A stretch of 64,000 nucleotides of DNA. Origin: Patescibacteria group bacterium (GTDB taxonomy: Bacteria; Patescibacteriota; Microgenomatia; Levybacterales; GWA1-39-11). The translations under genes and the position numbers were made by a program. The stretch covers positions 13,324 to 77,323 of the forward strand of contig DASZRG010000036.1 of assembly GCA_035549295.1 (NCBI GenBank), given 5' to 3'. Of this stretch, positions 7,446-61,714 are shown piece by piece (positions within the stretch are counted from its first letter, which is position 1; each line of letters begins with the position of its first letter). Under the pieces are notes generated by a model. The model was given only the letters and a program-made list of their open reading frames with translations. It did not search any database and had not been told where the DNA came from.

Positions 7446-8398
7446 TAGATTGAGGTCTTAAAGTATTCTATAGTTTTTGCCAACCCCGTATCAAGTTTTA
7501 TTTTAGGTTCAAAGCCAAATAACTCTTTTGCGTAAGCAATATCAGGTTTTCTTCTGTGTGGATCGTCCATAGGAAGATCTTCGTGAACAATCTTGGAAGA
7601 TGAGCCAACCATTTCTTTTATTTTACTTGCCAAATCAGCGATTGTATGCTCGTCAGGATTTCCCAAATTTATAACATAAAAGCCTGATTCCACATCAAGG
7701 CATCCTATCAATCCGGCAATTAAATCATCAACATAACAAAAACTTCTTGTCTGATCGCCATCTCCGTAGATTGTAATATCTTCATTTCTCAGCGCTTGGT
7801 TTATAAAATTTGAAACTACACGTCCATCGTCCTTTTGCATGCGTGTTCCATATGTATTGAATATTCTTATTACTCGAACATCTAATTTGTACTTTCTCGC
7901 GTATGCGGAACAGATAGCCTCGCCAAATCTTTTTCCCTCATCATAAACAGATCGCGGACCATTAGGATTGACATTTCCAAAATAATCTTCTTTCTGAGGT
8001 GAAACGGCGGGATCACCATAAATTTCCGAAGATGAAGCATAAACAAATTTAGCGTTTTTTTGATGTGCAAACTCTAAGGCATTCTTGGTCCCGACAGAAT
8101 TAACCATCAATGTCTCAATGGGATATGCAATATAACTCTTGGGGCTTTTTGCGTTCGGCGATGCAGGAGATGCCAAATGAAAAACAACATCCACCTGACC
8201 ATTTATACTAGGGAGCGAATGAATCAGGTCATGTTTTATAAATACAAAATTTGGATTTTCTAAAAATTTTTCAACGTTGCTTTCAGATCCTGTTAAAAAA
8301 TTGTCGATACATATTACTTTTTTACCTTCATTAAGAAGCCTTTCTACAAGATGCGATCCCACAAAACCAGCACCCCCCAATACCACTACGGTTGACAT
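7445..8398 (-). CDS. uxs: UDP-glucuronate decarboxylase (UDP-xylose synthase)
   Basis: It matches UXS motifs along its length (GGAGFVGSH, HLASPASP, YDEGKR, IFNTYGTRM, DGRVVSNFI.QAL) and is collinear with human UXS1 from memory. Confidence 0.85.
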   Translation of the reverse strand: MSTVVVLGGAGFVGSHLVERLLNEGKKVICIDNFLTGSESNVEKFLENPNFVFIKHDLIHSLPSINGQVDVVFHLASPASPNAKSPKSYIAYPIETLMVNSVGTKNALEFAHQKNAKFVYASSSEIYGDPAVSPQKEDYFGNVNPNGPRSVYDEGKRFGEAICSAYARKYKLDVRVIRIFNTYGTRMQKDDGRVVSNFINQALRNEDITIYGDGDQTRSFCYVDDLIAGLIGCLDVESGFYVINLGNPDEHTIADLASKIKEMVGSSSKIVHEDLPMDDPHRRKPDIAYAKELFGFEPKIKLDTGLAKTIEYFKTSI

Positions 8399-8456
8399 GG
8401 ATTAATTGTATCTAAAAAATGCCACAAATACTACGATAGGAAAAAGAAAATTGCAA

Positions 8457-8492
8457 GAAACTAGAGACTAGATATTAGATACTAGGAATTTC
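8457..8492. promoter_or_regulatory. CTAG-rich conserved ~33-bp motif, 59 nt upstream of the uxs start in the divergent uxs/gmd promoter region
   Basis: GAAACTAGAGACTAGATATTAGATACTAGGAATTTC, followed by AGTGATTAAG/AGTGATTAGG sub-motifs. Confidence 0.65.
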
Positions 8493-12004: not shown

Positions 12005-12075
12005 TGTCATTCTGAACGTAGTGAAGAATCTTACTTGCCTAAACCCAATATCCTTCGTTCCACTCAGGATGACAT
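12005..12075. repeat. Degenerate family-1 hairpin repeat with TGTCATTCTGAACG / CACTCAGGATGACA inverted ends, between the ugd start and the rmlD-like stop
   Basis: Its ends are 10/14 inverted-complementary and it shares the GTCATTCTGAAC terminus. Confidence 0.6.
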
Positions 12076-16599: not shown

Positions 16600-16717
16600 C
16601 TAATCTCAATCGTTTAACGCTATAAGGTAAAAAAGTCTGTATCGGTTAAGTTACACGCTTAACGTAACCGAGTAAACGACCCGGGCAGCGTATCTGAAAA
16701 ACTACTTTCGATGGAGA

Positions 16718-16750
16718 TTTCCTAGTATCTAATATCTAGTCTCTAGTTTC
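16718..16750. promoter_or_regulatory. CTAG-rich conserved ~33-bp motif (reverse complement of the copy at 8457-8492)
   Basis: TTTCCTAGTATCTAATATCTAGTCTCTAGTTTC is the reverse complement of GAAACTAGAGACTAGATATTAGATACTAGGAAA at 8457. Confidence 0.7.
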
Positions 16751-16757
16751 TCGCATG

Positions 16758-23259: not shown

Positions 23260-23370
23260 AAACTCATTATTATAAGATTAAATTTTGCAAAATCAATCTA
23301 AAAGGCGAGATTGCTTCTATGCACTTACCTAAGTGGAACTTAGCTTGTTGCTCGTAATAATGAAATATTT

Positions 23371-23467
23371 GTCACTGCGAGCCCGAAGGGCGTGGCAGGC
23401 TCGCAGGCGAGATTGCTTCGTTTCACTGCACTTCGCTTCGCTCGTTTGTTCACTCGCAATGACAAGG
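23371..23467. repeat. Hairpin repeat of family 2 (GTCA[C/T]TGCGAG...CTCGCAATGAC termini)
   Basis: TGTCACTGCGAGCC...GGCTCGCAGGCGAGATTGCTTCG...CACTCGCAATGACAAGG. Its ends are inverted repeats, and it shares GAGATTGCTTC with the copies at 33922, 34236 and 50804. Confidence 0.75.
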
Positions 23468-23517
23468 ATTCTTAGATTACTTTTTCGAATTTGGTCTTGT
23501 CGTAAAAGTTGGAATTC

Positions 23518-23652
23518 GTCATTCTGAACCCCGATCCAATCGGGGAACCTTGTTTCAGAATCTCATACTTCGAGGTCCTGAATAACGAGCAATTTGTCAT
23601 GCTGAATTTATTTCAGCATCTCGTTGAGGTCCTGAAACAAGTTCAGGACGAC
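23518..23652. repeat. Composite hairpin repeat of family 1 (modules M1-M3), flanked by 32-bp imperfect direct repeats at 23481-23512 and 23669-23700
   Basis: GTCATTCTGAACCCCGATCCAATCGGGGAACCTTGTTTCAGAATCTC... is identical over ~58 nt to 33204-33261. The modules are xxCTGAA...TTCAGxx hairpins. Confidence 0.85.
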
Positions 23653-23659
23653 ATGATTT

Positions 23660-24748: not shown

Positions 24749-25005
24749 TTGAATGAAATTATTTGAAAGCCGTATTTTTTGATATCCTCCGGTTTCCAAA
24801 AAGGCATATCTTTTATTTTTCCAACGTACGTAACTTTCTTGACAACCTCACGGCCTGTATATTCATTTTTATCCTCATCCCATTCTTTTAAGATCAGAGT
24901 ATCGCCCTCACAACACTCAAAATCAGCAAGACGAAGATCATACGTTTTCTTACCTGACTTTATGAGTTCAAAATATTTCTTCCAAACCTTTTTCTCAATT
25001 CTCAT
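24745..25005 (-). CDS. DUF3850/ASCH-like small protein
   Basis: KVWKKYFELIKSGKKTYDLRLADF...GDTLILKEWDEDKNEYTGREVVKKVTYV matches the DUF3850 pattern. Confidence 0.55.
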   Translation of the reverse strand: MRIEKKVWKKYFELIKSGKKTYDLRLADFECCEGDTLILKEWDEDKNEYTGREVVKKVTYVGKIKDMPFWKPEDIKKYGFQIISFK

Positions 25006-25006
25006 A

Positions 25007-25042
25007 TTCTAGTCTCTAATATCTAGTATCTAGTTACTAGCT
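25007..25042. promoter_or_regulatory. CTAG-rich conserved motif copy, overlapping the last codons of prfB and abutting the DUF3850 start
   Basis: ATTCTAGTCTCTAATATCTAGTATCTAGTTACTAGC is related to the copies at 8457, 16718, 49325 and 53429. Confidence 0.65.
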
Positions 25043-26034
25043 TTCAATTCGGCGTCGATAAAAATGTCTATTTCACCATCGAGAACGGCTTCGGTATTGC
25101 TTGTTTCGGCACGCGTCCTGAGATCTTTTACCATTTGGTATGGATGCAAGACGTATGAACGAATCTGATTGCCCCAAGATGCGGGTTTGTAAACTCCCTT
25201 TAATTCTTTCTCTTGTTCGGCTGCTTTTTGCTGCTCAAGAGCCCAAAGCTTCGCTTTCAAGAGTTTCAATGCATACTCGCGATTTTGTCCCTGAAAGCGT
25301 TCAGTTTGACATGTTACGACAATACCAGTCGGTTTGTGTTTAAGCCTAACCGCAGATGAGACTTTCTGGACATTTTGCCCTCCATGAGATGAGGCGCGAT
25401 AAAAATCCCACTCCAAATCGTCTTCTTTTATTTCAGTATCCGTAGTTTCAATATCGGGAAGCACCTCAACTAAGGCAAAGGAGGTATGTCTCAAATTATC
25501 AGAATTAAAAGGCGATAATCTAACTAGGCGATGAGTACCTTGTTCACCCTTCATATATCCATAGACAAATTGGCCATCGACTGAAATTGTTGAACTTTTT
25601 ATACCAGCCTCTTCACCCTGTGTTTCATCGACTATTTCATACGACCAACCTTTTCTATCAAAAAATCGTAGATACATTCGCTTCAACATAGCGGCCCAGT
25701 CCATAGCATCGGCTCCTCCTTGACCAGCGTGAATTGTGACAAGCGCATTGTTTTTGTCATATGGTCCTGCCAAATAAAGATACATTTCCATATCACGCAA
25801 AAGCGTTTCGAGCCCAGTCGTGCTGTTTGAGTCGATATACTCCTGAAGCTTGGCTGCATCATCCACTTCTTTTTGTAGAAGTGCCATGAGTTTCATTTTG
25901 CGAGTAGCAGCTTGTGTATCTTTCCAAAAGTCAGGTCTCATGGACTCTGCTTCGATCTCTCGGATCTGAGTTTTTTTTGCTTCGATGTCGAGTTTGCCTA
26001 TCAAAATTTTGGCGCGCTCGATAAGATCGTTCAT
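25030..26034 (-). CDS. prfB: Peptide chain release factor 2
   Basis: The GGQ motif (SSHGGQNVQK) and the RF2-specific SPF motif (RLSPFNSDN) are present. The 334-aa frame is uninterrupted, so no programmed frameshift is used here. Confidence 0.9.
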   Translation of the reverse strand: MNDLIERAKILIGKLDIEAKKTQIREIEAESMRPDFWKDTQAATRKMKLMALLQKEVDDAAKLQEYIDSNSTTGLETLLRDMEMYLYLAGPYDKNNALVTIHAGQGGADAMDWAAMLKRMYLRFFDRKGWSYEIVDETQGEEAGIKSSTISVDGQFVYGYMKGEQGTHRLVRLSPFNSDNLRHTSFALVEVLPDIETTDTEIKEDDLEWDFYRASSHGGQNVQKVSSAVRLKHKPTGIVVTCQTERFQGQNREYALKLLKAKLWALEQQKAAEQEKELKGVYKPASWGNQIRSYVLHPYQMVKDLRTRAETSNTEAVLDGEIDIFIDAELKASN

Positions 26035-31914: not shown

Positions 31915-32785
31915 CTCTCAAGTCTATAAAAAACTTCGCGACAAATGGATCACGCGCCATATAGAGTCACAAAAATCACTGTTTGAAAAACACGGCGCAA
32001 CAATCAATAATTTTGTCAATAATACACGCAACTTTGCTGTTGGCTCAGCATCTGCACTAATGCTTTTATCGAGTCCCGCAACCAATTTCCTTCCGCCACC
32101 TCACACCATTGTCCATGAAGCCAAAATACCTGTTGAGAAAAGTGTTTTTGTCGCATCAGACCTATCAAGTCTTGTCCCTGATGAAGTCAGGGAACTTACG
32201 CCAAGCGAGGAGAGTTCAATATCGGGAGTTCTCACTCGCGATTTTGGCATAAAAGTCGTTCCCGAGTTGAATGGCATAAGACTCAATCGTACATATGGAC
32301 TAATTGGTGCGGAGCAACACCTGATGCGATATCCAGGAGATACTATGGATTCGCATTTTGACAAAGTTTCAGATGATTTAGAATATCGTGGATCTGGCAT
32401 GGCACCAGGACTTGGCGGGTGGGGATACTTTGCAAAATCAAAAGAAGAAATGACTCAAAAAGATGCTGATCGCGAGAAATATTATATTGCGGTACAGAGT
32501 TTTCTAGCACCAGGATTTGCCGAAAATACTCGCGAATATATAAGCTTTTTTAAGTTCCGCAAAATGCTAGTAGTCAATCCTGACAATGGCCACGCAATAG
32601 TTGCTGATATTGGAGACGCAGGCCCCGGGATTCATACAGGAAAACATCTAGGTGGGTCGCCTGAGGTTATGAGATATCTTGAACGCGTTGATGGTGCACA
32701 AAAAGGTGGTGTACTTTATTTTTTTATCGACGACCCGAAGGACGAAATCCCGCTCGGGCCGATAGAGACGAAGCAAGAAATATAG
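31907..32785 (+). CDS. Hypothetical protein with a possible RlpA-like double-psi beta-barrel near the C-terminus
   Basis: MLVVNPDNGHAIVADIGDAGP resembles the RlpA/expansin V.V.N..NG..v.vrv.DRGP segment. It overlaps the channel gene by 8 nt. Confidence 0.3.
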   Translation: MDNSQVYKKLRDKWITRHIESQKSLFEKHGATINNFVNNTRNFAVGSASALMLLSSPATNFLPPPHTIVHEAKIPVEKSVFVASDLSSLVPDEVRELTPSEESSISGVLTRDFGIKVVPELNGIRLNRTYGLIGAEQHLMRYPGDTMDSHFDKVSDDLEYRGSGMAPGLGGWGYFAKSKEEMTQKDADREKYYIAVQSFLAPGFAENTREYISFFKFRKMLVVNPDNGHAIVADIGDAGPGIHTGKHLGGSPEVMRYLERVDGAQKGGVLYFFIDDPKDEIPLGPIETKQEI

Positions 32786-32869
32786 ATTATAAATTAGATA
32801 TTATAGATTATAAAAATAAATTCTATGTAAAAATATAATATGTTATCTATAATATTTAATATCTAAAAC

Positions 32870-33196: not shown

Positions 33197-33203
33197 TAAT
33201 TTC

Positions 33204-33320
33204 GTCATTCTGAACCCCGATCCAATCGGGGAACCTTGTTTCAGAATCTCATACTTCGAGGTCCTGAAACAAGTTCAGGACGACAATTGGAAATAGTCAT
33301 GCTGAATTTATTTCAGCATC
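33204..33320. repeat. Hairpin repeat of family 1 (modules M1-M2-M3)
   Basis: GTCATTCTGAACCCCGATCCAATCGGGGAACCTTGTTTCAGAATCTC + GTCCTGAAACAAGTTCAGGACGAC + GTCATGCTGAATTTATTTCAGCATC. Near-identical to 23518-23575. Confidence 0.85.
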
Positions 33321-33326
33321 TTTAGT

Positions 33327-33884
33327 GTGTATAATCAATGGATGTCAAAATCTCAACAACTTGAGAAGATCGCTGAAGAAATTGCAAAATGCAAAATTTG
33401 CCAAAAGAACAAGCATGGACTACCCGTTCCTGGGGAGGGAAACCCTGATGCAGATGTAATGTTTATTGGTGAAGCACCAGGTCGCAACGAAGCTGAAACT
33501 GGTCGCCCCTTCATTGGGAGATCTGGAAAACTTCTTCGAGAAGCAATTAGAGGTTTAGGTTTGACTGAAGAAGAAGTCTATATAACAAGCCCCGTTAAAT
33601 ACCTACCTGATTATGTGACTCCAACTGATGAAGATATCGCCCATGGAATGACTCATCTTTCAAAGCAAATGGAAGTTATAAATCCAAAAGTTATGGTTCT
33701 TCTGGGAAGCGTTGCCGTCCGCGGAGTGCTTGGCGAAAAGCAAATGATAAGTAAAGTTCACGGAACGGTTATCAAAAAGGATGAAAGGTCATACTTTATC
33801 TCTTACCACCCTGCAGCAGCAATACGATTCCAAAAATTCAGGAAAACATTTCTTGATGACTTTCAAAAAATCCCCCTAAAATAA
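33327..33884 (+). CDS. udg: Uracil-DNA glycosylase, family 4
   Basis: It has the N-terminal Cys pair CKICQ and the GEGNPDADVMFIGEAPGRNE...GRPFIGRSGKLL motif of family-4 UDGs. Confidence 0.85.
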   Translation: MYNQWMSKSQQLEKIAEEIAKCKICQKNKHGLPVPGEGNPDADVMFIGEAPGRNEAETGRPFIGRSGKLLREAIRGLGLTEEEVYITSPVKYLPDYVTPTDEDIAHGMTHLSKQMEVINPKVMVLLGSVAVRGVLGEKQMISKVHGTVIKKDERSYFISYHPAAAIRFQKFRKTFLDDFQKIPLK

Positions 33885-33892
33885 TTCCACCT

Positions 33893-33932
33893 CCTCGTCA
33901 TTGCGAGGGTTTGAAAAACCCGAAGCAATCTC
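33893..33932. repeat. Family-2 hairpin repeat, left inverted copy bracketing the GIY-YIG gene
   Basis: CCTCGTCATTGCGAGGGTTTGAAAAACCCGAAGCAATCTC. Its reverse-complement partner is at 34236-34280. Confidence 0.8.
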
Positions 33933-33944
33933 TATAATAAATTC

Positions 33945-34237
33945 GTGAATTCAAAACAATACTATGTATATATTTTGACGAATAAACTAAATACGGTTTT
34001 ATATACTGGTATAACAAACGACTTAATTAAGAGAGTTTATGAACACAAAAATAAATTAGTTTCGGGATTTACTGAAAGATATAATGTTAACAAGCTCGTT
34101 TACTATGAAATCGCCGAGGACGCATAGGAGCAATAAAACGAGAGAAACAAATCAAAGGTGGTTCAAGGGGTAAGAAAAACGATTTGATTACAAAATTTAA
34201 TCCCGATTGGAAAGATTTATATGATGACCTTGCATGA
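33945..34237 (+). pseudogene. GIY-YIG nuclease family (UPF0213/YhbQ-like, ~97 aa), interrupted by a frameshift near 34122-34129
   Basis: Frame A reads MNSKQYYVYILTNKLNTVLYTGITNDLIKRVYEHK...YYEIAEDA*. In the -1 frame it continues GAIKREKQIKGGSRGKKNDLITKFNPDWKDLYDDLA*, which matches the conserved C-terminal half of this family. Confidence 0.6.
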
Positions 34238-34280
34238 GATTGCTTCGTCAGTCGCAAGCTCCTTCCTCGCAATGACAAAG
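34236..34280. repeat. Family-2 hairpin repeat, right inverted copy (GAGATTGCTTCG...CCTCGCAATGACAAAG)
   Basis: It is the reverse complement of the termini of the copy at 33893-33932. It starts at the GIY-YIG stop and ends 8 nt before the mazG-like stop. Confidence 0.8.
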
Positions 34281-34288
34281 AATGTATA

Positions 34289-34630
34289 TTAATCTTTGCG
34301 ATTTTTCTCTTTCTCTATTCTATCGGATATCGTTACTAATTTATCTCGAACGGCGCGGTCGAGATCAACATTTGATGATATAGCAAGCTGCATGAGGGTG
34401 ATGAGGACATCTGCGAACTCCTGATAAATATTTCTTCTATCAAAACGTTCTAATTTTGCGCGTCTTTGAAGCTTGAGAATCGATAGAATATCATTGCACA
34501 ATTCTCCTACTTCCTCATTTAACTTCACAGTTCGAGCCAATATCTCCTTCTCTCGCGGGGTATTGAGAGTATACTCTACACTCGGTGTGCTAAGAGCTTT
34601 AATTTTTTCTTCTAACTGCTTCAGATCCAT
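34289..34630 (-). CDS. MazG-like nucleotide pyrophosphohydrolase (small all-alpha NTP-PPase)
   Basis: 113 aa, with LNEEVGEL and EFADVLITLMQLA matching the MazG/NTP-PPase EExxE..D motif layout. Confidence 0.55.
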   Translation of the reverse strand: MDLKQLEEKIKALSTPSVEYTLNTPREKEILARTVKLNEEVGELCNDILSILKLQRRAKLERFDRRNIYQEFADVLITLMQLAISSNVDLDRAVRDKLVTISDRIEKEKNRKD

Positions 34631-36542: not shown

Positions 36543-36630
36543 CGTCGTCCTGATACTCGCTTCAGGACCTCGACGAGATGCTGAAACACGTGAAAGCTGC
36601 TGCTTCCAGTGCAAGCAAGTTCAGCATGAC
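36543..36630. repeat. Hairpin repeat of family 1, inverted orientation (M2 then M3 with an insertion)
   Basis: GTCGTCCTGATACTCGCTTCAGGACCTCGAC + GAGATGCTGAAACACG...GTTCAGCATGAC. Confidence 0.75.
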
Positions 36631-49324: not shown

Positions 49325-49358
49325 TAGTGATTAGAAACTAGATATTAGTGACTAGGAG
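49325..49358. promoter_or_regulatory. CTAG-rich conserved motif copy upstream of the SDR gene
   Basis: TAGTGATTAGAAACTAGATATTAGTGACTAGGAGAAA. Confidence 0.6.
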
Positions 49359-49463
49359 AAATAAATAGAGATAAAAGATATGAGATATAAGACTAAAGAT
49401 AAGTGATGAAAAAAAATTTGATTTTGGATTATTTTAAAAAAAGGATTTATTTACGAATATCTT

Positions 49464-50674: not shown

Positions 50675-53425
50675 TTATGGAATTATAGGGTAGTGGCATT
50701 TCTTCCATTTTTTACCAGAACCACAAGGACAGGGGTCGTTGCGGCCGAGTTTTCTGGCGGAGCCAGATCCAGCTTCGCTGGATTTTTCCTTTGAATCGTT
50801 GCTGAGATTGCTTTGTCGCTTCGCTCCTCGCAATGACGAGGGTTTTTTTTCTTCTCCTACCTCTGATTCGGGGGTGTTGACTGATACGTTTTGGCGGACT
50901 TCGACTTGTGGAACAATTTCTGCGAGATTTACTCTAAATGCGCGGTGAGATATCTCATCGTCGATTGAATCTACAAGTCGTTCAAACATATTGAACGATT
51001 CATTTTTATACTCGATAAGCGGATCACGCTGTCCATAACCACGAAGTCCTATACCAGTCCTGAGATCTTCCATAGCTGTTAGGTGGTCCATCCAGAGATT
51101 ATCTATAGTTGATAGGGATATTGCTTTATAAACTTGGGCCAAATGTTCTCGACTAAACTGCTTCTCCCAAGTATCGACAAGCTGTTTGGCAAGACCAACC
51201 AAGAAATCTGTTACCTCCTCAGCAGAATGGAATTGCTCTGATTGTTCATATAGATGTTTTCTAGAGTGCTCATCGAATGGAATGATGTTTGCAAACTCTT
51301 CGATCATATTTTTTCTACCATCTTCGACCATTTCAGAGTACAAATTCATTTGGACAATACTTGCAATTGATGCCTCGACCTTACTAAGAGTTGAGTCAAT
51401 AATATCTTCTTTGTTGGCAACTATCGCGCGGCGATTATCGTAAATTATTTCTCTTTGTTTGTTGAGAACATCGTCGTAGTCAAGAAGATTTTTTCGAATT
51501 TCAAAATTGTATCCTTCGACTTTTACTTGAGCCTGTTCAATAACTCTTGAAACGAGACCATGAGCCAAAGGTTGGTCTTCTGGGAAATTAAATCGCGTCA
51601 TAAGACCTGAAATCTGATCTCCTCCAAAAACGCGCATGAGATCATCTTCAAGAGATACAATAAACACAGATCGTCCCGGATCTCCTTGACGACCTGCACG
51701 CCCACGAAGCTGATTGTCGATCCTTCGAGACTCGTGCTTTTCAGTACCAATAACACATAGTCCGCCCTTTTTAAGAACTTCATCGTGCTCTTTTTCCCAT
51801 TTTTTCATGTGTTCGGCAAATCTTTTCTCGCCAGCTTTTCCTGAATACTCGACATCGAATTTGGATGGAGGTTGACCACCAAGAATAATATCAACTCCAC
51901 GACCTGCCATGTTGGTCGCAACTGTGACGGCATTGACTCGGCCCGCTTCACGAATAATAGCAGCTTCTTTTACATGGTTTTTCGCATTTAGGACTTCGTG
52001 TTTTATTCCGCGACGCTTTAGAGCTTCCGAAATAGTTTCGTTCTTATCAATTGATGTTGTACCAACAAGAACTGGTTGACCTTTTTTGTGAGCCTCCTCA
52101 ATCTGGTCAACAACGGCTTTTACTTTTGCATGATTTGTTTTGTAAATTTGGTCTCCCTGATCGTCACGAACCATCTCGCGGTGTGTCGGAATAACTATGA
52201 CGTCGAGTTTGTAAATTTTCTGGAACTCCTCTGCCTCTGTTACAGCAGTTCCTGTCATACCACCAAGTTTTTCATACATTCTGAAGTAATTCTGCAGAGA
52301 GACTGTTGCGAGAGTTTTGGACTCTTGTTGAATCGGTACATTTTCTTTTGCTTCAATCGCTTGGTGAAGACCCTCAGACAGTCTTCTACCTTCAAGAAGA
52401 CGTCCTGTAAATTCATCAACTAAAATAACTTGATTATCACGAACTATATAGTCTCGGTCTTTGTGAAAAAGCGTGTTTGCTTTGAGCGCTGCCTCGATGT
52501 GATAGACTGTGTCAAAATCTTTTTCATAAATATCTTTTACACCATAAAGCTTTTCAACTTTTTCAATTCCTTGATCTGTAAGATGAGCCGTACGGGACTT
52601 CTCATCTATTTTATAATCGGTCTCGGACGTCAAGCGATCGACCATATTGGCATATTCGTAATATTTTTGAGATGGCGTTGCATCAGGCATGGAGATAATA
52701 TGAGGAGTACGTGCCTCATCGATAAGAACTGAGTCCACCTCATCGATAACCGCGAAGTAATGATCGGTCTGCACCATCTGAGACTCTTCAGAAACCATAT
52801 TGTCGCGAAGATAATCAAATCCGAATTCTGAATTTATCCCATAAACAATATTGGCTTGATAGGCTTCACGACGCGATATCGGCTTCAAGTGGACGAGTCG
52901 ATAGTCAGATGCTTGATTGTCAGTAAATGTAGGATCGTAAAGAAATGAAGTCTCTGAAATAATAGATGAAACTGTCATTCCCAAGAAACTAAAAACAGCA
53001 CCCATCCATCCAGCATCACGACGAGCGAGATAATCGTTAACAGTAACGAGATGAACCGTGGCACCAGTCAAAGCATTGAGATACAGTGCAGGAACTGCTG
53101 ACAGCGTCTTTCCTTCTCCCGTCTTTTGCTCCGCAACTGCACCTCTTGCAAGAGCTGTTGCCGCCATGAGCTGAACATCATATGGCCTCATACCAACGCT
53201 TCTATGAGCTGCCTCACGAACGAGAGCAAATGCTTCTGGTAAAATTAGGAATATGCTTTCGCCTTCAGCAATTCTCTTTTTGAATTCTTCAGTTTTTTTG
53301 GGGAAGTCAGAATCTTTTAGTTTCTTTGTTTTTTCCTCCAGCGCATTTATTTGATCAACAATAGGAGCAAGTTTTTTTACTTCGCGGTCATTTGAGTCAA
53401 ATAGTTTTGTGAGACTTCCAAACAT
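50675..53425 (-). CDS. secA: Preprotein translocase ATPase SecA
   Basis: 916 aa with DEAD motor motifs (MATGEGKT-like GEGKTL, DEVDS), a C-terminal zinc finger CPCGSGKKWKKCH, and a repeat-derived insertion in the C-terminal linker. Confidence 0.95.
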   Translation of the reverse strand: MFGSLTKLFDSNDREVKKLAPIVDQINALEEKTKKLKDSDFPKKTEEFKKRIAEGESIFLILPEAFALVREAAHRSVGMRPYDVQLMAATALARGAVAEQKTGEGKTLSAVPALYLNALTGATVHLVTVNDYLARRDAGWMGAVFSFLGMTVSSIISETSFLYDPTFTDNQASDYRLVHLKPISRREAYQANIVYGINSEFGFDYLRDNMVSEESQMVQTDHYFAVIDEVDSVLIDEARTPHIISMPDATPSQKYYEYANMVDRLTSETDYKIDEKSRTAHLTDQGIEKVEKLYGVKDIYEKDFDTVYHIEAALKANTLFHKDRDYIVRDNQVILVDEFTGRLLEGRRLSEGLHQAIEAKENVPIQQESKTLATVSLQNYFRMYEKLGGMTGTAVTEAEEFQKIYKLDVIVIPTHREMVRDDQGDQIYKTNHAKVKAVVDQIEEAHKKGQPVLVGTTSIDKNETISEALKRRGIKHEVLNAKNHVKEAAIIREAGRVNAVTVATNMAGRGVDIILGGQPPSKFDVEYSGKAGEKRFAEHMKKWEKEHDEVLKKGGLCVIGTEKHESRRIDNQLRGRAGRQGDPGRSVFIVSLEDDLMRVFGGDQISGLMTRFNFPEDQPLAHGLVSRVIEQAQVKVEGYNFEIRKNLLDYDDVLNKQREIIYDNRRAIVANKEDIIDSTLSKVEASIASIVQMNLYSEMVEDGRKNMIEEFANIIPFDEHSRKHLYEQSEQFHSAEEVTDFLVGLAKQLVDTWEKQFSREHLAQVYKAISLSTIDNLWMDHLTAMEDLRTGIGLRGYGQRDPLIEYKNESFNMFERLVDSIDDEISHRAFRVNLAEIVPQVEVRQNVSVNTPESEVGEEKKPSSLRGAKRQSNLSNDSKEKSSEAGSGSARKLGRNDPCPCGSGKKWKKCHYPIIP
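50804..50847. repeat. Family-2 hairpin repeat embedded in-frame in the secA C-terminal linker
   Basis: GAGATTGCTTTGTCGCTTCGCTCCTCGCAATGACGAGGG encodes PSSLRGAKRQSNL. An adjacent ATCCAGCTTCGCTGGAT hairpin sits at 50772-50788. Confidence 0.7.
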
Positions 53426-53428
53426 AAG

Positions 53429-53466
53429 TTAGTGACTAGATACTAGATATTAGTAACTAGGAATTG
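53429..53466. promoter_or_regulatory. CTAG-rich conserved motif copy, 3 nt upstream of the secA start codon
   Basis: TTAGTGACTAGATACTAGATATTAGTAACTAGGAATTG. Confidence 0.65.
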
Positions 53467-53536
53467 AGGTTATATTTTAGCACATCCCAGGCTCAAATAC
53501 TAAATGCGAATTGCTAGTTTAAATTCTTACTAAAGA

Positions 53537-53790
53537 GTGTCATTCTGAACCCCCATTTAATCGGGGGAACCTTGATTCAGAATCTCTAATCGAGACCCCG
53601 GATCCCGTGAGCTTCGCTCATGGTAAACAAGTCTGGAGTGACAAGTTTCTATTCGGGTTATTCGGAGTAAACATTCGGATAAATTCGCGTCTAAATGAAT
53701 TCGCCCCCCACTAATTACTCAGTGAGGGGCAGAATACCATTTGATCAATTGGTATTCCGAATTAAATCGGAATCCAACCGTAAACTAGTT
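53537..53790. repeat. String of family-1 and family-3 hairpin modules in the 650-bp secA-serS spacer
   Basis: It contains GTCATTCTGAACCCCCATTTAATCGGGGGAACCTTGATTCAGAATCTC, GAGACCCCGGA...TCTGGAGTGACAAG, TTCGGGTTATTCGGA, CCCCCCACTAATTACTCAGTGAGGGG, GAATACCATTTGATCAATTGGTATTC, and ATTCCGAATTAAATCGGAAT. Confidence 0.8.
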
Positions 53791-55969: not shown

Positions 55970-56596
55970 ATGATTAAGGCTGTTATTTTCGACGTTGACG
56001 GTGTGTTAATTGATTCTTTTGAAGCAAATTTAAGATTTTTCGAAAACTTAATGGTAAAAGCGGGCTATCCAAAACCTAAGCGTGAGGAATTTCATGAGTT
56101 ATTCCATCTGAGTATGATGGATACAATAAAAGCGCTAACGAAATTAAATTCGGAAGAAGAATTACGAAAAATTTGGAATATGGGAAAAAGTAGAGAGGTC
56201 AACTACCCCGTCGATCTATTAGCTACGCCTGAGGGAATGGAAAAAACAATACTTGATCTCAATAAAAATTATACGCTTGGAATTGTATCCAACAGAGTCA
56301 AAGAAAGTGTTTATGAGGCACCAAGGCTTGCAAAACTAAAAGATCATTTTAAATCAACAATTACATATGAGGATACGATAAATCATAAACCAAACCCTGA
56401 ACCACTTTTACTTGCAGCGAGCGAACTAGATATTGAACCACGAAGTATCGTTTATGTTGGAGATGCGGAAAATGATCTGATAGCAGGAAAAGCAGCTGGA
56501 ATGAAAGTCATAGCATATTCACCCAACAAATATAAAAACACGGACGCTCAAGCTTTGTTATTCACCGATCTTCCTGCAATAATTAGAACATTATGA
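55970..56596 (+). CDS. HAD-superfamily hydrolase (beta-phosphoglucomutase/phosphatase-like)
   Basis: IKAVIFDVDGVLIDS (motif I), VSNR, and GDAENDLIAGKAAG (motif IV). Confidence 0.75.
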   Translation: MIKAVIFDVDGVLIDSFEANLRFFENLMVKAGYPKPKREEFHELFHLSMMDTIKALTKLNSEEELRKIWNMGKSREVNYPVDLLATPEGMEKTILDLNKNYTLGIVSNRVKESVYEAPRLAKLKDHFKSTITYEDTINHKPNPEPLLLAASELDIEPRSIVYVGDAENDLIAGKAAGMKVIAYSPNKYKNTDAQALLFTDLPAIIRTL

Positions 56597-57537
56597 TAAA
56601 CATTCAAATACCAAATTGGCAAGAACATGAACTACTCGACACCGGAAACGGCCGAAAGCTTGAGCGTTTTGGAAAATATATTCTAAATCGCATTGAACCA
56701 CAAGCAACGTGGCATCAAACTCTGAGCGAGTCAGAATGGCACAAAGCAGATGCTGTTTTTCGAAAAGCTAGTGACCGCGGTGGAAATTGGGAACTAAAAA
56801 AACAAATCCCAGGGAAGTGGACAATGTCATATGAAAGTCTGAAACTTGAACTTCGACTTACACCATTTGGACATGTGGGAGTTTTTCCGGACCAGTCAAA
56901 TCAGTGGGAATGGATTTCAAATAAAATCAAACAAAGAAGTCATCCTGAACCCCGATTGAATCGGGGGAACCTTGTTTCAGGATCTCAAGCTGAGACCCCG
57001 GAACAAGTCCGGGGTGACAAAGCTGTAAATGTTTTGAGTTTGTTTACTTATACTGGTGCTTCGACTCTAGAGGCGGCGGCGGCGGGCGCTCATGTAACTC
57101 ATGTTGATGCATCAAAACCAGCTATAACTTGGGCACGAGAAAACCAGAGAATATCAGGACTAACTGACAAACCTATTCGCTGGATCCCTGAGGATGCTTT
57201 AAAGTTTGTAAAACGAGAAGTAAGACGAAATTCACGCTACGACGCGATCATAATGGACCCTCCGAAATTTGGACGAGGAACTCAAGGAGAAGTTTGGAAA
57301 TTTGAAGAATCATTTCCAGAACTTATAGACTATTGTCGACAGATACTTTCAGATAACCCACTGTTCATACTTACGACTGCATATGCGATCCCTGTCTCGT
57401 CAATTTCTCTTGCAAATATGATCTCAGATGCAACTCGTAAGCTAAAAGGGAATATTGAGTATGGAGAACTAGCACTTAAACAAACATCAAACGAAAAACT
57501 TTTACCAACCGCCATTTTCTGTAAATGGGAGCGTTAA
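56593..57537 (+). CDS. SAM-dependent methyltransferase of the RlmI/YccW type, carrying an in-frame hairpin-repeat insertion
   Basis: VLSLFTYTGASTLEAA is motif I-like. IIMDPPKFGRG is the DPPxF motif. It makes an ATGA overlap with the upstream HAD gene. Confidence 0.5.
   Translation: MINIQIPNWQEHELLDTGNGRKLERFGKYILNRIEPQATWHQTLSESEWHKADAVFRKASDRGGNWELKKQIPGKWTMSYESLKLELRLTPFGHVGVFPDQSNQWEWISNKIKQRSHPEPRLNRGNLVSGSQAETPEQVRGDKAVNVLSLFTYTGASTLEAAAAGAHVTHVDASKPAITWARENQRISGLTDKPIRWIPEDALKFVKREVRRNSRYDAIIMDPPKFGRGTQGEVWKFEESFPELIDYCRQILSDNPLFILTTAYAIPVSSISLANMISDATRKLKGNIEYGELALKQTSNEKLLPTAIFCKWER
56941..57024. repeat. Family-1 hairpin repeat (M1 + GACCCCGGAACAAGTCCGGGGTGAC hairpin) inserted in-frame within the methyltransferase CDS
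   Basis: CATCCTGAACCCCGATTGAATCGGGGGAACCTTGTTTCAGGATCTC... is 84 nt with no stop codon and encodes HPEPRLNRGNLVSGSQAETPEQVRGDKA. It is near-identical in reverse complement to 61664-61714. Confidence 0.8.
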
Positions 57538-61663: not shown

Positions 61664-61714
61664 GAGATCCTGAAACAAGGTTCCCCCGATTCAATCGGGG
61701 TTCAGGATGGCGAC
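61664..61714. repeat. Family-1 hairpin repeat (M1, inverted orientation), abutting the greA stop
   Basis: GAGATCCTGAAACAAGGTTCCCCCGATTCAATCGGGGTTCAGGATGGCGAC. Confidence 0.85.

Follow-up and report, generated by a model that had tools for sequence, protein, structure and literature searches.

The two described systems closest to the locus reported here, a gene for a single-domain GIY-YIG nuclease enclosed by inverted hairpin repeats in a 64,000-nucleotide stretch of a Patescibacteria group bacterium (assembly GCA_035549295.1, contig DASZRG010000036.1, positions 13,324–77,323; hereafter the window, in whose own numbering all coordinates are given), are a superfamily of dispersed repeats and a nuclease that recognises repeats of this kind. 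The repeats are the CGTC-tagged repetitive extragenic palindromes (REPs; Di Nocera 2013, BMC Genomics, PMC3733652), defined by a CGTC or TGTC tag, a stem that begins with A-T and a short tail. They are frequent as head-to-head dimers, comprise families CGTC-1 to -4, include dRS3 of Neisseria and RPE-4/6 of Rickettsia, and “apparently lack a dedicated transposase”. The nuclease is SsnA (Chenal 2025, Nat Commun, PMC11893778), a 94-aa GIY-YIG protein whose gene is flanked in many phyla by NTS repeats (oriented dRS3, CGTCATTCCCGCGMAVGCGGGAATCYRG) and Ssn-related motifs (SRMs), with at least one SRM near 71% of the homologues and SRMs on both sides in 42%. SsnA binds the hairpin in single-stranded DNA only, double-stranded DNA and RNA being left unbound in vitro, and cleaves the DNA a few nucleotides to the 5' side of the hairpin. 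Cleavage is sensitive to the three nucleotides that precede the palindrome and binding to the C that follows it, and the stem sequence is read besides the structure, such that altering it abolishes activity. SsnA reduces transformation by NTS-bearing DNA about 5-fold, and the discussion of the same paper likens the NTS-ssnA-NTS arrangement to an insertion sequence, to IS200/IS605, RAYTs and REPs, with domestication put forward as a hypothesis.

The locus in our window is very probably a cassette of the same kind, SRM-ssn-SRM, in which an Ssn-family nuclease gene stands between inverted copies of its cognate hairpin and the SRM is a CGTC-tagged REP; the hairpins dispersed over the rest of the window are solo SRMs of several subtypes. 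An earlier reading of the nucleotide sequence (the first-pass annotation) had taken the gene and its repeats for an undescribed family. They are not, given that NTS-ssnA-NTS units are reported in PMC11893778 and the repeats are catalogued in PMC3733652, and with this locus the Ssn/SRM system (2025) and the CGTC REPs (2013) have been rediscovered independently. What is new here is modest: a host from the candidate phyla, a repeat variant missed by the published motif pattern, and comparative evidence of cassette movement. A literature search by repeat sequence strings returned unrelated primers only.

Comparison with described systems

The likeness to the Ssn/NTS system concerns both the protein and the repeats. 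In both systems the nuclease consists of one GIY-YIG domain, measures about 95 aa and has its catalytic Tyr, Tyr and Glu conserved, the spread over phyla is wide, many solo repeat copies are intergenic, and the inverted flanking hairpins have a 5' (C/T)GTC tag, an A-T stem start and a C directly after the stem. The build of the repeat is different, since NTS has a GC-rich stem of 8–9 bp and a loop of 4–5 nt, whereas the window-type repeat (GTCATTGCGAG...GAAGCAATCTC) combines an internal loop, GA/GAA, with an inner hairpin that measures 8–68 nt. Further differences are the tight geometry of our locus, in which a putative promoter and a start codon of leaderless type follow the left SRM and the right one contains the stop codon, and the host, a Patescibacteria-like metagenome-assembled genome, from a group absent from the main text of PMC11893778, in which the gene copy is a pseudogene. 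With the CGTC REPs, the window repeats have in common the unpaired CGTC/TGTC tag, the A-T stem start, the short unpaired 3' tail, the frequent head-to-head pairs, placed between convergent or co-directional genes, and occasional intragenic copies. The published families have 8–9-bp stems, 4–5-nt loops and a CCA tail, in contrast with the CTC(A) tail and the many bipartite stems with long inserts found here.

A single-copy nuclease gene bracketed by inverted copies of a genome-wide hairpin is also characteristic of REP/REPIN-RAYT systems (REPtrons) and of IS200/IS605, whose enzymes likewise recognise the hairpin in its single-stranded form and cleave next to it, and whose repeats are often inverted doublets. 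The first-pass annotation had drawn the REP/RAYT comparison, which is apt and corresponds to the analogy made in PMC11893778. These systems, however, use an HUH-Y1 transesterase that forms a covalent 5'-phosphotyrosine intermediate, and their tag is GTAG, as opposed to a GIY-YIG hydrolase and a GTC tag in our case. No HUH-Y1 tyrosine transposase was found in the window protein, the sole domain of which is GIY-YIG, and because no strand-joining activity is known for Ssn, the mechanism of propagation cannot be equal to that of REP/RAYT or IS200/IS605. Finally, UPF0213/YhbQ-type proteins, exemplified by BH0048 (structure 1ZG2), are small stand-alone GIY-YIG proteins of about 100 aa, and the gene had at first been called UPF0213/YhbQ-like. 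That label is right only approximately, as 1ZG2 is a distant profile match (E 5.6e-6, 29 bits) compared with the pairwise match to SsnA (E 2e-30, 90 bits). We know of no repeat association for UPF0213 proteins. A search of the PDB retrieved no Ssn structure, its sole relative of the window protein being the distant UPF0213 entry 1ZG2.

A frameshifted nuclease gene between inverted hairpins

At the junction between udg and a mazG-like gene (read over 33850–34300), a GIY-YIG gene of about 97 codons is bracketed by two inverted hairpin elements, in agreement with what had been noticed at first. The left SRM, a CGTC-tagged REP at 33896–33932 (+; CGTCATTGCGAGGGTTTGAAAAACCCGAAGCAATCTC), comprises a CGTC tag, an outer stem ATTGC/GCAAT, a GA/GAA internal loop, an inner stem GGGTTT/AAACCC and a CTC tail, and has a folding energy of −7.5 kcal/mol in single-stranded DNA form (z −2.97). 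The right SRM, at 34236–34277 (−), is inverted (GAGATTGCTTCG...CCTCGCAATGACA, with the reverse complement TGTCATTGCGAGG...CGAAGCAATCTC). Its inner stem is degenerate and its fold poor (z −0.69), and its CTCA tail provides the TGA stop codon of ssn. The two SRMs share only their terminal blocks (GTCATTGCGAGG and CGAAGCAATCTC), which match without mismatches on opposite strands, while their inner segments differ. The left element had at first been started 3 nt early, at 33893. The SRM-ssn-SRM unit is 382 bp long (33896–34277) and is contained in a 404-bp spacer.

A promoter-like site (TTGAAA-16 nt-TATAAT, 11/12 consensus matches; 33911–33938, +) lies partly inside the left SRM, with the TTGAAA −35 box in the loop of the repeat and TATAAT at 33933–33938. 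The GTG start codon (33945) follows 6 nt past this −10 box. A layout of SRM, TATAAT, 6 or 7 nt and start codon also occurs in homologous loci L005, L054, L058, L045, L061, L064 and L072, and this shared spacing between −10 box and start suggests a leaderless transcript. A promoter of its own, giving an mRNA of leaderless type, is apparently part of the cassette.

The ssn copy of the window is a pseudogene for a single-domain GIY-YIG nuclease that, once repaired, has 97 codons, from the GTG at 33945 to the TGA at 34235–34237 (+). A 1-nt deletion at about 34122–34124 brings a TAG codon (34125–34127) in frame, at which the first ssn frame ends, and the C-terminal 37 codons (..AIKREKQIKGGSR..NPDWKDLY..) carry on in the −1 frame to the TGA; comparison with homologues indicates that one missing base accounts for the broken frame. 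The frameshift, already seen at first pass, is also present in an independent Logan assembly (run SRR12170510), in which the entire 404-nt spacer is identical. Programmed frameshifting was considered and rejected, all 80 homologues being encoded in a single frame and the site having no slippery or homopolymer run. The deletion leaves the catalytic glutamate, E67, beyond the frameshift and hence untranslated in frame. Together with a right hairpin that has no inner stem, this tells that the cassette copy, including its ssn gene, is dead or dying.

The repaired 97-aa protein matches the Pfam GIY-YIG domain over residues 5–76 (E 1.8e-15) and has no second domain, and its homologues are 94–98 aa long. 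Pairwise BLASTP aligns it with the 94-aa SsnA of N. gonorrhoeae at 46% identity over 92 aa without gaps (E 2e-30, 90 bits). In a tblastn search against 7.3 Gb the homology to SsnA has an E value of 3e-21, within the published criterion for Ssn proteins (E < 1e-10). We took the gonococcal reference from one of two complete gonococcal chromosomes mis-filed in a plasmid collection (L283, NZ_CP119140.1, 1881857–1882953), which codes for an orthologue of 94 aa with the Y6, Y17 and E64 mutated in PMC11893778 and has NTS copies around the gene. Y9, Y20 and E67 of the window protein align with these residues and, together with R30, H34 and N86, are invariant in homologue alignments. In IMG/VR contigs, GIY-YIG genes with canonical NTS repeats on their flanks (L217, L242 and L164) encode proteins 39–47% identical to that of the window; in L217, for example, NTS(+) at 7785–7809 and NTS(−) at 8141–8165 enclose a gene at 7850–8119. 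PADLOC matched no defence-system model in the window, and the phage records searched contained no homologue of the window protein. On these sequence comparisons, and with the same high confidence as for the cassette as a whole, we regard the gene as a frameshifted copy of an Ssn-family nuclease (single-domain GIY-YIG, probably of the CDD clade cd10448 rather than of cd10456, the UPF0213 model).

The hairpin repeats accompany the gene across phyla

Close relatives number in the thousands: among 8000 scored candidates, 7999 reach E ≤ 1e-5, and the top matches are 65–76% identical to the window protein. Retaining one genome per species, 587 relatives were returned, the best 80 of which were used as loci. 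They come from more than 15 phyla, including Cyanobacteria, Nitrospirota, Patescibacteria, Planctomycetota, Elusimicrobiota, Chloroflexota, Pseudomonadota, Bacillota and Bacteroidota. When these loci are read by eye, GTCATTGCGAG...GAAGCAATC(TC) is found some tens of nucleotides upstream of ssn, and (GA)GATTGCTTCG...CTCGCAATGAC at or just past the stop codon, in almost all of them. For counting we used the 11-nt half-site GTCATTGCGAG with at most 2 mismatches, searched over 170 nt upstream on the plus strand and 150 nt downstream on the minus strand, in place of a strict hairpin detector that undercounted. The half-site is present upstream in 58 of the 80 loci, downstream in 65 and on both sides in 52, where about 3 loci per side are expected from its background frequency of 0.25 per kb and strand at distances beyond 300 nt. 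The association between gene and repeat is general, real and strong.

Mere chance, the juxtaposition of a GIY-YIG gene with abundant intergenic terminator hairpins, could be entertained inasmuch as such hairpins abound in the window, preferentially at gene 3' ends. It is refuted by the half-site count, 58 and 65 of 80 independent loci having the same element in fixed positions and orientations, as well as by the stop codon being built into the repeat tail, and we give it practically no credence. The latter feature is not peculiar to the window, as the commonest distance from stop codon to repeat according to the strict detector is 0–1 nt, with the CTCA tail of the repeat giving the TGA. A looser hairpin detector (6-bp stem, one mismatch, G-T pairs allowed) was discarded, its 7.6 matches per kb being the same as in shuffled sequences.

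A total of 238 instances of the repeat type that flanks ssn in the window (TTGCGAG type) allows its anatomy to be described and set against the definition of CGTC REPs. GTC is preceded by T or C in 214 of them, the stem starts with AT (or GT, AC), and the 3' tail is C-T-C-A, or C-(T/C)-C-A if its variation is included. The outer stem, ATTGC/GCAAT, is followed by the GA/GAA (or GTG) internal loop and by an inner segment of 8–68 nt. A perfect inner stem of at least 4 bp lies directly against the internal loop in 29% of the instances, compared with 0.6% of shuffles, and does so with 23 different sequences. Such frequency of the inner stem, combined with the many sequences that form it, implies that the hairpin is conserved and that its inner sequence is free. 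Loci without the half-site are mostly occupied by other subtypes with the same grammar, such as GTCACCCCGAG.. in L003 and L014 and ATTCTG.. in L067, L078 and L079.

Presence, absence and position of the cassette

The genes on both sides of the cassette lie outside it and are convergent, the cassette occupying the gap between them. They are udg on the left, of the uracil-DNA glycosylase family (33342–33884, +; Pfam PF03167, E 8e-33), and on the right a gene for a MazG-like pyrophosphohydrolase (34289–34630, −; weak PRA-PH and MazG matches). Eleven nucleotides separate the udg stop codon (33882–33884) from the unit, and another 11 nt separate the unit from the stop codon of the mazG-like gene (34289–34291). 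The cassette ends show no target-site duplication in the window sequence.

Scanning metagenomes for Udg retrieved relatives of this junction. Two of these, L086 and L087, have a Udg 62% identical to that of the window; in both, the stop codons of udg and of the mazG-like orthologue overlap (..ccTTAttTAGc..) and there is no cassette. The junction in L088 is occupied by an unrelated insert of 280 bp. L085 is the closest relative, its Udg being 80% identical. Here the SRM-TATAAT-start layout recurs in an ssn cassette upstream of udg, on the other strand and within a cluster of six SRMs, and nothing is found downstream of udg. The absence in L086 and L087 agrees with the first-pass view of the unit as an insertion, and the cassette appears to have entered the udg/mazG-like junction as a unit. 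At a larger scale, only 36 of 3160 locus pairs have a neighbouring gene within 2 kb in common, nearly all of them within Nostocales, and protein identity is 60–76% over Cyanobacteria, Nitrospirota, Chloroflexota, Planctomycetota, Patescibacteria, Bacillota and others, more than 15 phyla in all. Because of the empty sites in L086 and L087, the other position in L085 and the unshared neighbourhoods, the data fit a cassette that inserts as a unit, is transferred between lineages, and can also settle and be inherited vertically.

In Nostocales (L013, L016, L018, L023, L028, L034 and L057) the neighbourhood of ssn is conserved, with a head-to-head SRM pair downstream of the gene and none upstream. 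This arrangement looks like a vertically inherited and possibly domesticated one.

An insertion-like pattern of presence and absence would also result from homing, in which a free-standing GIY-YIG endonuclease cleaves alleles that have no cassette and repair copies it into them. The protein scores 18 bits against TIGR01453, for a cut-off of 56, and matches PHROG 314 and 7168 at E of about 1e-3. All these profile scores are below threshold, though, and the 97-aa protein has no DNA-binding extension. The conserved recognition sequence is moreover inside the cassette instead of in the empty site, the insertion sites are unrelated between loci, and neither phage homologues nor an intron or other Rfam family in the window were found, all of which makes homing very improbable.

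Proposed cleavage and the question of mobility

By homology with the characterised Neisseria and Wolbachia enzymes, the intact protein would bind the SRM hairpin in single-stranded DNA only. It would recognise the sequence of the stem together with the GTC tag that precedes it and the C that immediately follows it, and cleavage would fall on the same strand, a few nucleotides to the 5' side of the tag. As the SRMs are inverted with their GTC ends outward, each strand would have one cleavable site, at the 5' boundary of the cassette.

Several points weigh against the reading of the locus as an SRM-ssn-SRM cassette with these properties. The published SRM pattern, HGTCWYN(0-2)YYVSBRHN(0-5)WNVSBRGN(0-2)RNCYNB, has 0 matches in the window, though it matched the NTS consensus, which places the window repeats outside the operational SRM definition of PMC11893778; they keep the SRM grammar (HGTC tag, W-Y stem start, C after the stem), with a stem composition and a loop length that the pattern does not cover. 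The orientation of the SRMs is reversed in L042, L043 and L050, cyanobacterial loci have a head-to-head SRM pair downstream and no upstream copy, and the NTS copies nearest to gonococcal ssnA (L283) face inward, with their GTC ends toward the gene, opposite to the window and L217. The relatives with an empty site are only 62% identical in Udg, so that their junction is not mappable to the nucleotide and a deletion there is conceivable. The specificity of the clade for TTGCGAG-SRMs, and even its preference for single strands, is extrapolated from enzymes about 46% identical. What the sequences themselves show is the anatomy of the locus, its homology, how general the association is, and where the cassette is present or absent; the biochemistry we infer from a characterised enzyme at that distance, and the way in which the cassette would move is likewise inferred.

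With respect to movement, the cassette might be an autonomous transposon that uses the GIY-YIG nuclease as transposase, the solo hairpins being non-autonomous derivatives, comparable to miniature inverted-repeat transposable elements or REPINs, copied by the same enzyme. The empty orthologous site, the different position in the closest relative, the lack of a conserved gene neighbourhood and the high protein identity across phyla are in line with this idea, which was also raised in PMC11893778. The same is true of the recognition hairpins, which delimit the cassette precisely and turn their cleavage sides outward, of an 83-nt SRM dimer that is 100% identical at two loci of the window, and of an apparent nested SRM between 11-nt direct repeats (both described below). 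Conversely, GIY-YIG enzymes hydrolyse DNA without a covalent intermediate and Ssn has no known strand-transfer activity. One cleavable site per strand and cassette would not permit a single-strand “peel and paste” of the IS200/IS605 type, and the cassette ends have no target-site duplication. In addition, ssn is single-copy in all 80 loci (within ±3 kb) and in the 64-kb window, its position in Nostocales is syntenic and looks like vertical descent, and 13 of the approximately 17 solo SRMs differ in subtype from those flanking ssn, at odds with an enzyme family in which a change of stem sequence abolishes SsnA activity. We consider it rather unlikely that the cassettes are autonomous transposons in this sense. 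A related possibility, equally tentative, is that they are truly autonomous and move and seed solo hairpins by a novel mechanism based on a hydrolytic GIY-YIG single-strand nickase assisted by host replication and repair: a nick 5' of the cassette on each strand could generate two ends, each with a full single-stranded copy, which would then be filled in. The mobile-element reading is therefore a hypothesis with some support from comparative data, neither new nor proven, and the mobilisation of solo hairpins by the nuclease, as had been suggested at first pass, is likewise unproven.

Alternatively, Ssn could be a domesticated host enzyme for the restriction of single-stranded DNA or the control of recombination, with the gene-adjacent SRMs serving mainly as promoter, operator and terminator. 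This would be consistent with the effect of SsnA on the transformation of NTS-bearing DNA (PMC11893778), with a near-consensus promoter that overlaps the left SRM and a start codon 6–7 nt past the −10 box in many loci, and with the overlap of right SRM and stop codon, a position expected for a terminator or stabiliser hairpin. Most solo SRMs are also at gene 3' ends, and the Nostocales position is syntenic. A classical operator role is nevertheless unlikely for an enzyme that binds neither double-stranded DNA nor RNA in vitro, no known defence-system model was matched, and the window copy, being a pseudogene, is dispensable in its host genome. A unit that is present, absent or relocated among close relatives is more easily seen as selfish or transferable than as serving a core function. 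We consider domestication rather unlikely as well.

If cassettes of this type were autonomous elements, Ssn would supply the “missing transposase” of the CGTC-REP superfamily, and the empty sites, the relocation in L085, the cross-phylum identity, the identical modules and the nested SRM would represent the first sequence-level support for it. Being very widespread, strongly conserved and variably present between related genomes, and having a repeat that escapes the published motif, the clade is a good place to ask whether Ssn propagates CGTC-type repeats, and its distinct pair of enzyme and site joins the proposed toolbox of single-stranded-DNA cutters. From a practical point of view, thousands of genes annotated as “GIY-YIG nuclease family protein”, and the pseudo open reading frames of “RHCEE/DCFVPRNDK” type that flank them, can be labelled as Ssn cassettes and SRM repeats.

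Solo repeats in the window

About 17 further SRM elements, mostly intergenic and with a preference for the 3' ends of genes, are scattered over the 64-kb window, a number that includes degenerate copies at 23307–23402 and a copy at 61664–61713. They have in common a grammar (GTC-stem-loop-stem-CTC) rather than a sequence: (C/T)GTC is followed directly by a stem arm that mostly begins with A-T, then by a loop or an inner hairpin, by the second, complementary arm and by C-T-C(-A). A strict scan (GTC, a stem of at least 7 bp and CTC) retrieves 10 copies, compared with 0.37 in shuffles, and a looser one with 5-bp stems retrieves 23, compared with 6.8, about 16 of them with the full tail. The same terminal sequences had been reported from at least ten places without an open reading frame. 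As a count of SRMs this holds; as a statement on the sequence it does not, given that only two good solo copies (23411–23463 and 50804–50837) and two degenerate ones belong to the TTGCGAG subtype that flanks ssn. The others are CTGAA-type variants, ATTCTGAA.., ATGCTGAA.., GTCCTGAA.. and ACCCCGGA.. elements. CTGAA-type SRMs fold as single-stranded DNA hairpins with z scores down to −4.9. Their short copies, with an 8-bp stem and a 5-nt loop, fall within the dimensions of families CGTC-1 to -4; in the TTGCGAG type and in long CTGAA-type copies the stem is bipartite, with 8–68 nt inserted. The window has no second GIY-YIG gene, and Rfam at its gathering threshold detects no family over the whole window, so that the hairpins are not accounted for by a known RNA motif, ribozyme or intron.

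The largest group is a cluster of about seven solo SRMs on both strands at 23307–23652. Its members include degenerate copies at 23307–23350 (−) and 23371–23402 (+), the TTGCGAG-type copy at 23411–23463 (−), and CTGAA-type copies at 23518–23564 (+), 23596–23622 (+) and 23626–23652 (−). Between udg and an upstream gene for a 108-aa protein there are three solo CTGAA-type SRMs, at 33204–33250 (+), 33258–33284 (−) and 33296–33320 (+), with z scores from −3.4 to −4.9, and 83 nt of this 33204–33320 cluster are 100% identical to 23515–23582 plus 23626–23653. A dimer module made of a long CTGAA-type SRM (+) followed by a short one (−) is thus duplicated at 23515–23653 and 33201–33320. At 23.5 kb, the short SRM is split by a 43-nt piece that holds a third SRM and is bounded by an 11-nt direct repeat (GAGGTCCTGAA); this piece may be a nested insertion with target duplication.

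Elsewhere, a solo SRM pair (36544–36571, +; 36575–36630, −) lies between convergent genes, a solo long CTGAA-type SRM at 53539–53586 (+), and another, with the variant tag GTCGCC, at 61664–61713 (−). The solo short SRM GTCATTCTGAACGTAGTGAAGAATCT at 12006–12030 (+) is near-identical to the SRM that flanks ssn in L078. The TTGCGAG-type copy at 50804–50837 (−) is inside secA (50675–53425, −) and in frame. It falls in the linker that joins the Wing/Scaffold domain to the C-terminal SEC-C zinc motif, where it encodes ..SSLRGAKRQSNLS.., and is an intragenic hairpin repeat tolerated by an essential gene. A further solo pair (56939–56986, +; 56992–57018, −) is located upstream of a methyltransferase gene. 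The open reading frame at 56593–57537 (+) runs across these two SRMs (56939–57018), and its methyltransferase domain begins at residue 143; the gene probably starts past the SRMs, its 5' extension being a read-through artefact.

The window also contains a second, unrelated dispersed repeat, AT-rich and similar to TAGTGAYTAGAWACTAGATATTAG.., which is intergenic and occurs in both orientations at 8455–8487, 16717–16755, 25001–25043, 32781–32816, 49325–49375 and 53426–53468.

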